Shown here: positions 4,677 to 8,488 of the stretch, in pieces
Layout: each line of letters begins with the position of its first letter
Numbering within the stretch: position 1 is the stretch's first letter
Source of the DNA: a virus
Taxonomy: Duplodnaviria > Heunggongvirae > Uroviricota > Caudoviricetes
DNA: 41,415 nt
IMG/VR virus record: IMGVR_UViG_2579778884_000014
Direction: 5' to 3' (one strand)
The notes under the pieces: model-generated
Databases searched by the model: none
What the model saw: the letters and a program-made list of their open reading frames with translations, nothing else
What the model was told of the DNA's origin: nothing
Made by a program: the position numbers and the translations under genes

Positions 4677-5029
4677 TACGCCTCCGATGTAACAGTCGTT
4701 ATTCCATAAAGAGTGTCGATTTCAGCGGAAAACATGACACGTCGGGTCGTGGTATCCAGCGTCGTATTGAAAGAGAGGATTGATTTAACGCCCTGCGTTT
4801 CGAGGATGCGCTTACGGATCGCCAGGTTGTAGGTTTCCGGCTTCTGCTTACCGAGTACGGACTGGATCCACGGAGTCCCCTCGGTGGTGTCGAGAAACCA
4901 TTGCCCATACCACAATTCGAATCGCGTTTTTACCGCCTGCGCCACGGCCTCCGGTGAGTTAATCAGCCAGGTGTCATCACCGCTGCCAAAGGTGTAATCG
5001 CCATCGGCGTCTTCACGTCTGTATCGCAT
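4676..5029 (-). CDS. Small baseplate assembly protein (gp25/W-like position)
   Basis: 117 aa ORF between spike and J-like genes with start/stop coupling; call is by synteny only. Confidence 0.45.
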   Translation of the reverse strand: MRYRREDADGDYTFGSGDDTWLINSPEAVAQAVKTRFELWYGQWFLDTTEGTPWIQSVLGKQKPETYNLAIRKRILETQGVKSILSFNTTLDTTTRRVMFSAEIDTLYGITTVTSEA

Positions 5030-5781
5030 CAGTTTACCCCGTCGGTACTGCTTTCACCGCGCTGAACACCACCATGAGTGTGCGTATCATCGATTGGCTT
5101 GCCGTTAGCCTTCACGCCCCCCAAAAACTCAACAGCACCAGTGATTTTTGAAGCCACACCAGAAACCACAGACCCCACCATGCCCCCCATCCAGGTTAAC
5201 AGGCCATGAATGGTTACTTTCTCAGAAAAATCAGCCAGGGGGGCAACCACATCAAGACCACCTGGAGCGACAATTTTAATTTTCCTGGTATCAGGATTAA
5301 GCTCAAAATAGGTGCTGCCGTCATCACTACGCAACTGTGTGGCACTGGTATTAATACCGCTAATCTTCCTTGCCTGCGACTGGGGACCGACAATACAAAA
5401 CGCATCCGATAAATCATGCATTCTGTCATCGACCGACTCCTGTATCCCGCCACTCTGCCACCAGAAATCAATACAACGATCGGCAAAAATCACCAAACAT
5501 TCATCACCGGCTTTAACTGGGAACGTTAGCGTACATCCTCCGCCGCGCGGGAATACCACTGGCACATCCACCAGCAATGGGTAATTTTTGGTAATGCGGT
5601 TGCCGTCATTATCCTTTTCAACCGAACGGATAGCAGGCTGCACAACTGCCGTCACCGCATCAGGATCGAATGACTGAATAATGCCAGGCAAGGCGACACG
5701 GATCTGGTTCTTTGTTGTTTCCCGTTCAGATTTGAATGTTTCGGCAAGGTCGCCGCTGCGGGTCTGGTCAGATACTGCCAT
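5029..5781 (-). CDS. Baseplate central spike (gpV/Mu gp45-like)
   Basis: 250 aa ORF; synteny with the P2 V / Mu gp45 position, glycine-rich C-terminal region. Confidence 0.55.
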   Translation of the reverse strand: MAVSDQTRSGDLAETFKSERETTKNQIRVALPGIIQSFDPDAVTAVVQPAIRSVEKDNDGNRITKNYPLLVDVPVVFPRGGGCTLTFPVKAGDECLVIFADRCIDFWWQSGGIQESVDDRMHDLSDAFCIVGPQSQARKISGINTSATQLRSDDGSTYFELNPDTRKIKIVAPGGLDVVAPLADFSEKVTIHGLLTWMGGMVGSVVSGVASKITGAVEFLGGVKANGKPIDDTHTHGGVQRGESSTDGVN

Positions 5782-5803
5782 TTAGTAGGCTCCAGAAAGC
5801 AAA

Positions 5804-5823
5804 AAACCCGCCGAAGCGGGTTT
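5804..5823 (-). terminator. Intrinsic terminator after the cargo cassette
   Basis: Perfect hairpin AAACCCGC-CGAA-GCGGGTTT; on the minus-strand transcript the stem is followed by UUUUUUGC. Lies between the cargo stop (5841) and the spike gene start (5781). Confidence 0.6.
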
Positions 5824-5840
5824 GATAACGTTAATTTTAT

Positions 5841-6236
5841 TCATGAAACTCTAGCAGACTTTAGCTGTTCCCAGCGCTCAAAATAGAGTTCAGCAGCCTC
5901 GATTGCATCCTGTCCCATCTCTTTCGAAACAGTCACATTCGTCAGATCATAGTCAGCTTCATTTCTAGCATCCCGCCACTGGCGAAGTACGAAAGCTAGG
6001 GATTTCAGTGTATTTGTCGGGTATGGCTCTGATTTGCACTCTGAGGGCGTTGACATATAACCCACAGTATTTTTGTGATGCTCATGGGTAAAATGCGGTA
6101 TGGCAGTAAGTGAGCTAATAGACTCATGTAACATACTGTAATACGCCCTTGAGATAGCGCTTCGAAATCCACTCTCAATATTTTCAGACAGACATAATCG
6201 AGCGGTATCGAGAATCTGATTGCTAGTTACCGACAT
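5841..6236 (-). CDS. Hypothetical protein, cargo gene 2; possible HEPN-like fold
   Basis: 131 aa ORF overlapping the upstream cargo gene by 14 bp; contains ...SRAYYSMLH... (R-x6-H) and a second LRQWRDARNEADYD helix. AT-rich relative to flanking tail genes by eye. Confidence 0.7.
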   Translation of the reverse strand: MSVTSNQILDTARLCLSENIESGFRSAISRAYYSMLHESISSLTAIPHFTHEHHKNTVGYMSTPSECKSEPYPTNTLKSLAFVLRQWRDARNEADYDLTNVTVSKEMGQDAIEAAELYFERWEQLKSARVS

Positions 6237-6996
6237 GGTAGCTCACCCCCGTATGCAACTGACGCGGAGAGGTAAATCTAGCTAACAGGGAACAATCATC
6301 CAGTTTAGATTCAGCGCAGACTCTATCAGCCAAGTCGAAGTTCATTTTGGCAATAGTTTTAGGCTCAAGATTTTTAATATCAACAACATAGCAACCGCTT
6401 CCACTAAGCTGAACGAAACCTGTCGTAGCCTTGTATTCACTTAGCAAGCCCCAGATTATGGATGCTAAGGTCTGGAACTGTTCCTTCGAGCACTGTGTGG
6501 CGCTATAGAAATTATCCATTTCTGCAAGGAGTTCTTCTTTGTGCTTCATAGCATTACTCCTGCCTTCTGATTCAGAAAGAAGCTTAATGTGCTCTTCCAT
6601 ATAAAATTTTAACTGTTCACGCTCGCCGCAACGGTACGCCCAACTGTATGCGTTGTGACTAAAGAGTTTTGTCCGATACTTCTTTGCCAGCGGGACATAG
6701 ACATCCTTGAGTTCATTATAGCTAAATGTATTAATTAAAATGTGATGATAGTGCATTGCCAACGTTACATCGTTTACTTCTAGGCTTATCCTGAGATAAC
6801 GTAACGCGCTTTCAATCTTTCCGGTTATTGCATCCAGATAAGATAGTGCAATGTTGGTAGCAGGCGTTGGAGAGACAGAAAGTTCCTCTCGAATTTTCTT
6901 TTCAGTGAAGGGATCTAAACTTTCCCTATCCAATAGAAGCGCATTGAATTGTTCAATATATTTTTGCGCTTTTTCTAATGGGATGCCTGCCGCCAT
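6223..6996 (-). CDS. Hypothetical protein, cargo gene 1
   Basis: 257 aa ORF with no recognisable virion-protein or enzyme motif; AT-rich by eye; preceded by a promoter-like element and a weak AAGAGA Shine-Dalgarno. Confidence 0.7.
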   Translation of the reverse strand: MAAGIPLEKAQKYIEQFNALLLDRESLDPFTEKKIREELSVSPTPATNIALSYLDAITGKIESALRYLRISLEVNDVTLAMHYHHILINTFSYNELKDVYVPLAKKYRTKLFSHNAYSWAYRCGEREQLKFYMEEHIKLLSESEGRSNAMKHKEELLAEMDNFYSATQCSKEQFQTLASIIWGLLSEYKATTGFVQLSGSGCYVVDIKNLEPKTIAKMNFDLADRVCAESKLDDCSLLARFTSPRQLHTGVSYHVGN

Positions 6997-7025
6997 GGAT
7001 TATTTCTCTTACTAAAGGGATTGTG

Positions 7026-7054
7026 ATTGTGAACTTTGAACAATATCTCGTCAA
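7026..7054 (-). promoter_or_regulatory. Putative sigma70 promoter for the cargo cassette
   Basis: On the minus strand TTGACG - 17 nt - CACAAT about 30 nt upstream of the ATG at 6996, in the 95 bp gap after the 110 aa gene. Imperfect -10; not validated. Confidence 0.3.
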
Positions 7055-7091
7055 CCTTAAAGCGCTCATCTCGGAAGATTGACATCAAACT

Positions 7092-7424
7092 TTAGCGTAA
7101 CGCCTTTTTACACGGGAAAGATCCAATGATTTTCGGCGCGTCCATGCTGTTCTGCAGCAGCTGGACGTTCAGGAAAGCTTTTCCGTTACGTTTCACAAAC
7201 TCAAAGCCGTAATTGTTACCATCACGGGAAGGCATCAGGCCCATGTCCATTTTCATGTTTGAATAGTCACCATCTTTTCCCAGAAATTTTATCTTCTGTG
7301 ATGTGACAGTTTCACCGTTAATAACAGTCATTCCGTCACCGGTCATCGTGTAGTTGCCGCACTGAATTGCAGCCATCGCCGGAGCAGTAACCATCATAAC
7401 TAACGCCAAACATAACCGTTTCAT
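7092..7424 (-). CDS. Small secreted protein of unknown function (signal peptide)
   Basis: 110 aa; N-terminus MKRLCLALVMMVTAPAMAA looks like a Sec signal peptide with an AxA cleavage site; start overlaps the stop of the upstream gene (TAATG). Confidence 0.65.
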   Translation of the reverse strand: MKRLCLALVMMVTAPAMAAIQCGNYTMTGDGMTVINGETVTSQKIKFLGKDGDYSNMKMDMGLMPSRDGNNYGFEFVKRNGKAFLNVQLLQNSMDAPKIIGSFPCKKALR

Positions 7425-8488
7425 TAAAGCCCTCTTTCCCTCGCTGATGAGGAAACAAGATCCGCCGCGCCACGCGCTTCACACATCATATCCATGTACC
7501 ACGCCTGGCCCCTTGTGTCGCCAGTGTACATAATCCCGCGCACAATATAAACGCCATCCGTTGCGATGCTGGCAGGCTGCGATGTGGTGCCGCTGAGCGT
7601 GATATTTCCGTCCGTGTTCTGGTCGGTGATCTGACCACCAGCCATCGCAATATCGTTGTTCGACAACGCGGTACGATAGACGGAAGCCTGATCCAGCTGA
7701 ATGAGCCCGTTAACCCGGATGTTCGGATTAATAAGCGCGCGGACGTTTACGCCGTTACCGATAGTCTGCTGCGGCATTCCAATAAGCCCGGTAGCGCTGT
7801 TGAGCACAATCGCTTCGTGAACATATTCGTTATTCGCCACCATCTGGCGCTGACCGTCCACGAATTGCCATGTTGCGCCACATTGTCCGGCTACGTTATC
7901 CATTAGATGCCGCGTCATGCCAAAGAGTACCCGCCCCCGAGGGAATACAGTAGCAGGCATTTCAGGCGTCAGGCCTTCGGTCGCGCCTTTGGCTTCGAAG
8001 TCTTTCATCAGCGCACGGTTCACATCAGCGACCGTGTAACCGGCAGCCAGCGTCTGTGAGGTTATACTGGTAGCAAAAGCCAGATCAGTATCTGCTGCCT
8101 GAATCAGGACGTAGGTATCAACCGGACTGTCTTTTCCTGTGACCGAGTAGCGAATTTCACCGCTGAAAATCAGTCCGTAGTTGCGGCCATCTCTCTGGCC
8201 CACGTCCGCCGCGTCAACTTCCCGCACGGTCCCTACGTCGCTTGCTGACACCTCCGGCGCGATACCGTCGTAACCGGCAATCAGACGCACTTTCGAAAAC
8301 TCCTGCCCGGTAATTCGGTTCACAGTATCTGCCGAGAGGTTATAAATTTTGATAGTCCCTACCCGGGACGCGCTGCTGATGTTGAACCAGTCGATCGTAA
8401 AGGTGACTTTGAAATCACTTAGCTCAATTCCCTGACCGTTCCCGTCCACAAGCTGCAGCTCGAAATGTCTCATCCAGTTCTGTGACAT
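7424..8488 (-). CDS. Baseplate hub-like tail protein
   Basis: 354 aa ORF downstream of the tape measure block; assignment by synteny with P2 gpD / Mu hub position. Confidence 0.5.
   Translation of the reverse strand: MSQNWMRHFELQLVDGNGQGIELSDFKVTFTIDWFNISSASRVGTIKIYNLSADTVNRITGQEFSKVRLIAGYDGIAPEVSASDVGTVREVDAADVGQRDGRNYGLIFSGEIRYSVTGKDSPVDTYVLIQAADTDLAFATSITSQTLAAGYTVADVNRALMKDFEAKGATEGLTPEMPATVFPRGRVLFGMTRHLMDNVAGQCGATWQFVDGQRQMVANNEYVHEAIVLNSATGLIGMPQQTIGNGVNVRALINPNIRVNGLIQLDQASVYRTALSNNDIAMAGGQITDQNTDGNITLSGTTSQPASIATDGVYIVRGIMYTGDTRGQAWYMDMMCEARGAADLVSSSARERGL

Follow-up and report, generated by a model that had tools for sequence, protein, structure and literature searches.

The window (the whole stretch of 41,415 nucleotides analyzed here, to which all positions refer) comes from an E. 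coli prophage of the Brunovirus/SEN34-like type, in which a two-gene cassette of low GC content separates the hub gene of the baseplate from the spike gene. The upstream gene codes for a 257 aa protein, referred to below as the partner, and the downstream gene codes for a 131 aa protein that almost certainly has a HEPN fold (Table 1). An initial annotation had placed the 131 aa open reading frame (ORF) at the same position with the same translation, and had described the product as an all-helical-looking protein with a HEPN-like R-x6-H signature in the peptide ISRAYYSMLHES and with a second basic helix, LRQWRDARNEADYD. Both peptides are present in the protein, and its AF2 model upholds the all-helical look, with helices at residues 5–17, 21–42, 53–67, 74–95, and 105–130.

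Table 1. Positions of the cassette, its signals and motifs, and the flanking genes in the window.
Feature	Position	Strand	Description
Low-GC cargo cassette	5782..7091	.	GC 0.40–0.45 vs. 0.48–0.56 in the flanking tail genes
HEPN-fold protein gene, 131 aa	5841..6236	minus	phrog_5176; UPF0332/PF05168-like clade
Partner gene, 257 aa (phrog_17809)	6223..6996	minus	TPR-like repeats (residues 7–139), two long helices, small alpha-beta-beta-alpha-beta C-terminal domain
Overlap of partner stop and HEPN start, 14 nt	6223..6236	minus	Translational coupling; Shine-Dalgarno-like GGGGGTGAG run just before the HEPN ATG
R30-A-Y-Y-S-M-L-H37 (R-x6-H of the initial annotation)	6126..6149	minus	Helix 2 (21–42); clade motif S-R-x-Y-Y-x3-H
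H54	6075..6077	minus	Opens helix 3; candidate for an alternative catalytic His; 99% conserved; aligns with a His of 9xbd
R91-N-E-A-D-Y-D97 (canonical HEPN Rx4-6H slot)	5946..5966	minus	Degenerate; Asp97 replaces His
Intrinsic terminator-like hairpin	5804..5823	minus	AAACCCGC-UUCG-GCGGGUUU, then UUU; MFE -15 kcal/mol, z = -2.2
Intergenic region upstream of the partner gene, 95 nt	6997..7091	minus	Two sigma70-like sites, 7054–7026 and 7027–6999
Flank: membrane-puncturing spike gene	5029..5781	minus	PF18352 (E = 4e-44) and Apex motif; RefSeq annotation
Flank: signal-peptide protein, 110 aa	7092..7424	minus	phrog_3443; Sec-type signal peptide MKRLCLALVMMVTAPAMA
Flank: baseplate hub-like protein, 354 aa	7424..8488	minus	Adjoins the 110 aa gene

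The drop in GC content to 0.40–0.45 spans positions 5850–7350. The terminator-like hairpin lies 18 nt past the HEPN stop codon and 23 nt ahead of the spike gene start. Because it is located inside the late tail operon and on the same strand as the essential spike gene, late transcription must either antiterminate or restart. The region upstream of the partner gene is compatible with the cassette having its own promoter; promoter-like sites in this region are no more numerous than expected from shuffled sequences (3 vs. 3.1).

The 110 aa protein is named a "STY1065/STY2022 family phage-derived protein" by NCBI. In these prophages, its gene is kept beside the hub gene with or without the cassette, an unusual arrangement within a cluster of baseplate genes.

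The two genes as one unit

The exact 131 aa protein and the exact 257 aa partner each occur on at least 1000 public contigs, and positions 5700–7500 match the E. coli strains BH100, F11, and Ecol_542 with 100% identity. Homologues of the HEPN protein keep a constant length of about 126–132 aa while their identity falls from 100% to about 27%. The partner gene is directly upstream of the HEPN gene in all 70 IMG/VR contigs that could be assessed (those with upstream DNA present) and in seven of seven Enterobacterales genomes, as well as in loci of Paraburkholderia, Methylophilus, and Franconibacter, whose HEPN proteins are 26–33% identical. A stop/start overlap of 1–20 nt is kept in 12 of the 12 homologous pairs examined, and the two proteins co-diverge, with the partner usually changing somewhat faster. 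This obligatory pairing of two small, overlapping, and co-evolving genes corresponds to the generic layout of type II-like toxin–antitoxin modules.

NCBI PGAP gives no annotation to the 131 aa ORF in E. coli BH100N or in RIVM strains (NZ_CP025703.1, 2809781–2810223, and NZ_CP134718.1; locus_tag gap RS14265/RS14275), and RefSeq-based surveys would thus present the 257 aa gene as an orphan. The same protein has been annotated by GenBank submitters and by IMG.

In one Salmonella assembly (L016 4235–5020; GCA_020136955.1), the partner gene is broken into two ORFs, of 127 aa and 128 aa, ahead of an intact HEPN gene. If this split is real and not a sequencing error, the HEPN protein is tolerated there without a full-length partner, which speaks against a lethal toxin that this antitoxin alone would restrain.

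The partner family is small, with 122 cluster representatives at 50% identity among 1.8 billion proteins, almost all of about 255 aa, and single-sequence scans of the 257 aa protein gave no match in Pfam, PADLOC, or NCBIfam. P0188, the partner variant common in E. coli and Salmonella, shares only some 20% identity with the 257 aa protein, yet the profile recovered it at 4e-16. Both partner variants belong to phrog_17809 and both HEPN proteins to phrog_5176, two families to which PHROGs assigns no function. Among 85 divergent representatives of the partner, no polar residue except N219 is conserved, which suggests a binding rather than a catalytic role. Beyond the close subfamily, neither the motif HIKLLSExEGR...KHK nor the tail HTGVSY is conserved; the conservation of the tail may lie partly at the nucleotide level, since it overlaps the ribosome-binding site and start codon of the HEPN gene.

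Two other views of the partner were rejected. It is not a hidden minimal nucleotidyltransferase (MNT), because it combines a TPR-like fold with a small alpha/beta domain and the motif GSx10DxD is absent; a "GS...D.D"-like string occurs only in the divergent L025 variant and in the wrong context. Neither does it divide into a TPR "sensor" half that varies and a C-terminal half that is conserved, as conservation among the 85 representatives is equally low in both.

Other partners of the same HEPN subfamily were surveyed at 80 genomic loci with HEPN proteins of the "RSAISRAYY ... ARNEADY" type by classing the overlapping upstream gene. In 11 Pseudanabaena loci, this gene codes for an MNT of the classical type with GSx10DxD (both representatives scanned match PF01909); elsewhere it codes for a family of approximately 106 aa in 33 loci (Planctomycetota, Cyanobacteria, Chloroflexota, and archaea), and for a family of approximately 205 aa in 10 loci (Roseateles and relatives), the latter two having no Pfam match; the TPR-like partner is the fourth upstream family. 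The C-terminal 95 residues of the partner (residues 163–257) matched the approximately 205 aa family in hhalign with a probability of 83% (E = 8.7e-6). One C-terminal "HEPN-binding" domain in all non-MNT partners was unsupported, as the approximately 106 aa family gave E = 0.044 and a probability of 1%, and the similar alpha-beta-beta-alpha-beta topology among the non-MNT families is only a reading of their sequences. The layout of the cassette is that of HEPN/MNT toxin–antitoxin modules with the neutralizing gene exchanged.

Fold and clade of the 131 aa protein

The 131 aa sequence alone had no match in Pfam (E ≤ 1), NCBIfam, or PADLOC, and only family profiles gave matches. A profile of 23 homologues matched three PDB entries over nearly the full length: 9xbd (E = 1e-7), titled "HEPN domain-containing protein"; 9xbc (7e-7), a variant of 9xbd; and AF0298/UPF0332 (2hsb, 7.5e-5), to which the 131 aa protein is only 19% identical; Foldseek confirmed the top match. 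Eight of the 23 close homologues match PF05168 singly, the best at 3e-5. A profile search of 5.8 billion proteins yielded 507 relatives; the distant ones carry the precomputed assignment PF05168 and the name UPF0332, and the family profile reaches them at 1e-10 to 1e-14. The modeled protein is a compact all-alpha up-down bundle superposable on solved HEPN domains. With profile and structure searches agreeing, we regard the HEPN fold as nearly certain, and the sequence relationships place the protein, at clade level and below the single-sequence threshold of PF05168, in the "classical" HEPN-T/PF05168/UPF0332 clade typified by AF0298. The HEPN assignment of the initial annotation is therefore correct as to fold and clade, whereas the argument from R-x6-H that had led to it is wrong, as described in the next section.

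HEPNs of PF05168 are termed "class II", lack RX4HXY, and had not been studied biochemically as of 2020 (Yao et al., 2020). Our literature search found no paper on PDB 9xbd, on "UPF0332" together with HEPN, or on class II HEPN biochemistry. The closest solved relatives, the recent entries 9xbd and 9xbc, are distinguished by a Tyr-to-Phe exchange at the position corresponding to Y96, which suggests that the functional role of this Tyr is being probed in that relative.

Conserved residues and the Rx4-6H motif

At least one Rx4-6H occurred in 60% of 20,000 composition-preserving shuffles of the 131 aa protein (mean 0.89 per shuffle), and 17 of the 44 likely genes in the window contain the motif, among them the partner gene with two. 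R30-x6-H37 alone is thus no evidence for HEPN; the initial annotation had itself cautioned that the motif might be coincidental. In addition, the motif is located in helix 2, and the canonical Arg aligns to R91: the profile alignment sets L-x-x-x-R-D-A-R91-N-E-A-D-Y-D97 opposite DLRNRSDYD of 9xbd and DLREESDYG of 2hsb. Catalytic HEPN RNases carry Rx4-6H ahead of the final helix, at roughly two-thirds of the domain length; in the 131 aa protein, the residues R+5 to R+7 after R91 are Y96, D97, and L98, with no His among them. The HepT-type RX4HXY is likewise absent, the segment being R91-NEAD-Y96-D97.

Judged from the alignment of 109 homologues, down to about 27% identity, it is conservation and not motif occurrence that exceeds chance in this family. 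E21, R25, S29, R30, Y32, and Y33 are invariant, H37 and H54 are conserved at 95% and 99%, R91, D95, and Y96 at 99% each, R88 at 92%, and N92 at 90%. Position 97 is Asp in 54, His in 30, Arg in 10, and Glu in 6 homologues, and Asn or Tyr in the remainder; about a quarter of the family (30/109, 28%) keep the canonical R-x5-H at the proper site, from which the 131 aa protein has lost it. With respect to the solved relatives, the H37 position is Tyr in 9xbd, and 2hsb has Thr at the R30 position and His at the H37 position. The counterpart of H54 in 9xbd is the His within "SSHSAV".

The retained R91, the Asp in place of the canonical His, and the conserved N-terminal H54 and H37 make up the pattern of AF0298-type proteins. 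In AF0298-type HEPN-T, the Arg of Rx4-6H is kept and the His is typically absent, with Asp instead "in several cases"; a second conserved N-terminal His might form an alternative active site, and HEPNs without the motif are predicted to be non-catalytic (Anantharaman et al., 2013). The sequence by itself therefore does not reveal whether the protein is a nuclease. A catalytic site, if there is one, would have to combine the invariant R91, D95, and Y96 with H54 and/or H37, R30, R25, and E21 in place of a canonical Rx4-6H. We consider actual RNase activity somewhat less likely than not.

Distribution and insertion sites

The cassette was found in the hub–spike slot of SEN34-like myoviruses at 45 viral loci and in the tail modules of lambda-like siphoviruses, between or beside the tape measure gene and gpM/gpL, at 10, i.e., inside the tail modules of two unrelated tail types at 55 of 72 viral loci. 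Elsewhere it lies in the lambdoid early region beside a VapBC pair, next to the gene for lambda replication protein P, between the lysozyme and small terminase genes, and in a non-phage locus of Paraburkholderia. A diverged cassette is also present between the portal gene gpQ and gpA of a P2-like element (L166 4160–5351; IMGVR_UViG_2728369581_000001), where the flanks match phrog_68 (portal, 2e-118) and PF05840 (replication gene A, 2e-116) and an Ogr-like zinc-finger ORF adjoins. The cos-proximal gpQ–gpA locus of P2 holds the exclusion genes old and tin and was demonstrated to be a hotspot of antiviral systems by Rousset et al. (2022); the hotspot argument for the cassette comes from this one P2-like locus and from general positions of phage morons.

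In vB_EcoM-606R2 and Salmonella phage SEN34 (Brunovirus), the flanks are common and other small ORFs fill the slot. Among complete E. coli genomes, 294 of 5426 match a 1.8 kb query of the cassette with its flanks; no more than 27 of these cover 80% or more of the query and so have this variant of the cassette. The cassette is thus located between conserved genes, is absent from close relatives, deviates in GC content, and has a terminator; it is a horizontally mobile accessory unit (moron) of temperate phages, with at least six types of location.

The hub–spike slot itself looks like a variable cargo site. It holds a 170 aa ORF (phrog_19013) in vB_EcoM-606R2 (L008 3143–3655) and ORFs of 138 aa and 77 aa in SEN34 (L009 3124–3795), and at a further locus (L006 4246–5130) a 294 aa ORF replaces the 110 aa one; these ORFs have no Pfam or PADLOC annotation. 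The portion of the literature covered by our search contained no description of the hub–spike slot of SEN34-like myoviruses as a cargo site or defense hotspot.

A second tail-module insertion site lies between the tape-measure gene and gpM of lambda-like siphoviruses (L021 5238–6396 and L139–L141). Phage lambda is not known to have a gene at this position.

Discussion

We regard the chances as even that the cassette is a toxin/antitoxin-like or abortive-infection (anti-phage) module of temperate phages. In such a module, the HEPN protein, probably as a dimer, would be the effector and act on RNA. The TPR-like partner would bind the HEPN protein and keep it silent as a stoichiometric neutralizer and possibly as a sensor, and would release it upon a trigger, for example, a protein of an infecting phage. 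Neutralization by AMPylation would not be available to the cassette because the partner has neither the fold nor the motif of a nucleotidyltransferase. Several observations speak against the module. No class II (PF05168) HEPN has a published RNase activity or toxicity (Yao et al., 2020). The canonical His is replaced by D97 at a position that varies freely in the family among Asp, His, Arg, Glu, Asn, and Tyr. Neither protein matches the PADLOC 2023 defense models (PADLOC-DB v2, including AbiV, HEPN-TM, and ApeA) at E ≤ 1, and the common E. coli variant of the cassette has no PADLOC match at E ≤ 0.1.

The same observations favor a non-catalytic HEPN whose ligand would be a nucleotide, RNA, or a protein, in the manner of the sacsin HEPN and the substrate-binding domains of nucleotidyltransferases, and so do the non-catalytic roles predicted for motif-less HEPNs (Anantharaman et al., 2013) and the apparent disruption of the partner in Salmonella with the HEPN gene intact. 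The pair might then be, for instance, an anti-defense factor that sequesters a signal or inhibits host immunity, or a regulator of lysogeny or superinfection. We consider this reading rather unlikely, though a serious rival of the module. The near invariance of E21, R25, S29, R30, Y32, Y33, H37, H54, R88, R91, D95, and Y96 exceeds what a simple scaffold needs, and the operon layout copies that of HEPN/MNT toxin–antitoxin pairs. The presence of the cassette in the P2 antiviral hotspot and beside VapBC also points toward the module, although ligand binding is still compatible with these positions.

Improbable, in our view, is a canonical HEPN RNase with R30-x6-H37 as its catalytic dyad and the 257 aa protein as its antitoxin or sensor, as the initial annotation had proposed. 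R30 is invariant and H37 strongly conserved, and a conserved N-terminal His has been suggested as an alternative active site of AF0298-type HEPNs (Anantharaman et al., 2013), but such a site would pair a His with R91 and not with R30. The two residues lie in helix 2, off the canonical position; each of the two solved relatives lacks one of them, and a motif of this form arises by chance in most shuffles.

An accessory role in tail assembly or the baseplate, such as a TPR chaperone for hub or spike proteins, is suggested by the prevalence of the cassette in two unrelated types of tail module and by the common use of TPR domains as chaperone modules. Close relatives with the same hub and spike genes nevertheless lack the cassette or carry unrelated ORFs in its place, and few of the matching E. 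coli genomes hold most of the query. Moreover, the pair also occurs at early, replication, lysis–packaging, P2 gpQ–gpA, and non-phage Paraburkholderia loci, is low in GC, and carries a terminator of its own. As sister phages lack it and many of its locations lie outside tail modules, we judge a tail-assembly role to be highly improbable. Lastly, that the 131 aa ORF is a chance ORF overlapping the 3' end of the 257 aa gene, as its omission by PGAP might suggest, is already refuted by the conservation data (the exact protein on so many contigs, homologues of constant length with a sharply conserved residue pattern, a confident fold prediction, PDB relatives, and an existing PHROG family), and its probability is practically nil.

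Returning to the anti-phage module, we put forward with reserve, as a somewhat unlikely proposal, that phrog_17809 and phrog_5176 constitute a new and widespread two-gene anti-phage system of temperate enterobacterial phages. In this system, a TPR-like receptor would keep a non-canonical HEPN inactive, its active site rebuilt from R91, D95, and Y96 with H54/H37 after Asp took the place of the catalytic His, and would free it upon encountering a protein of a superinfecting phage. If the anti-phage reading is true, the occurrence of the same HEPN subfamily downstream of at least four unrelated partner families would point to an interchangeable "partner + class II HEPN" architecture. Both families have already been catalogued (in PHROGs, in UniRef as "HEPN domain-containing", and in IMG as "UPF0332") and are uncharacterized. 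The literature searched contained no description of a pairing of a TPR-like protein with a class II HEPN, and the portion of the DefensePredictor supplements covered did not include the partner's RefSeq accessions.

HEPN effectors recur in bacterial immunity, as in Cas13, Csm6, RnlA/LsoA, HepT, and Tha. PF05168/UPF0332 is the oldest-named HEPN branch and was without a demonstrated activity as of Yao et al. (2020); if the proposal is true, it would provide the first activity for this clade. The cassette is a tractable E. coli member of the class II branch, being small, common, phage-borne, and equipped with a partner that is not a nucleotidyltransferase. Its function would reveal whether HEPNs without the His remain nucleases and how a TPR-like protein controls one, and also whether the hub–spike slot and the tape-measure-proximal slots of lambdoid phages are further reservoirs of defense genes. 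Should the cassette be inert or merely regulatory, it would set a limit on inferring an "RNase toxin" from a short Rx4-6H match.

Comparison with known systems

Members of the AF0298 (2hsb)/COG2250 clade reside on chromosomes of thermophiles or archaea with an MNT as partner, whereas the HEPN protein of the cassette is phage-borne in Enterobacterales and has a TPR-like partner instead. The class II HEPN/MNT modules (PF05168 + PF01909), predicted by Makarova and Koonin and discussed by Yao et al. (2020), likewise consist of overlapping genes with the HEPN gene downstream, their HEPN likewise lacks RX4HXY, and the Pseudanabaena relatives of the present subfamily have an MNT upstream. In contrast, no adjacent MNT with GSx10DxD, the mark of both HepT/MntA and class II HEPN/MNT, is found in the cassette, whose partner has no nucleotidyltransferase fold or motif. 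HepT (DUF86/PF01934) is a proven RNase with an intact RX4HXY, the Tyr of which is oligo-AMPylated by MntA (Yao et al., 2020). Compared with such type VII HepT/MntA pairs (Shewanella SO_3166/SO_3165, 5yep; Aphanizomenon, 7ae2), the cassette lacks both the MNT and a His in the slot.

AbiV, a larger protein that acts singly, is not known to have a TPR partner. The cassette HEPN has no sequence match to the PADLOC AbiV models. Like AF0298, AbiV of Lactococcus has a HEPN that keeps the Arg without the motif His, yet it functions in phage defense (Anantharaman et al., 2013).

The cassette is not among the systems named for the P2 hotspot in the portion of Rousset et al. (2022) covered here. It resembles phage morons and the P2 old–tin locus in being compact, deviating in GC content, having its own terminator, and being absent from sister phages.

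A precedent for a HEPN effector in prophages is Tha of S. aureus, which protects lysogens, is triggered by the tail protein of an incoming phage, and needs a phage-encoded inhibitor against self-killing (Rostol et al., 2024). Tha is one protein of 301 aa with a canonical R-x4-H in its C-terminal HEPN, in contrast to the two genes and the degenerate motif of the cassette, and its inhibitor Ith is small, Xis-like, and encoded antisense; Tha has no TPR partner and no sequence relation to the cassette. By analogy, Tha may nevertheless serve as a functional model of how a HEPN cassette of a prophage would work.
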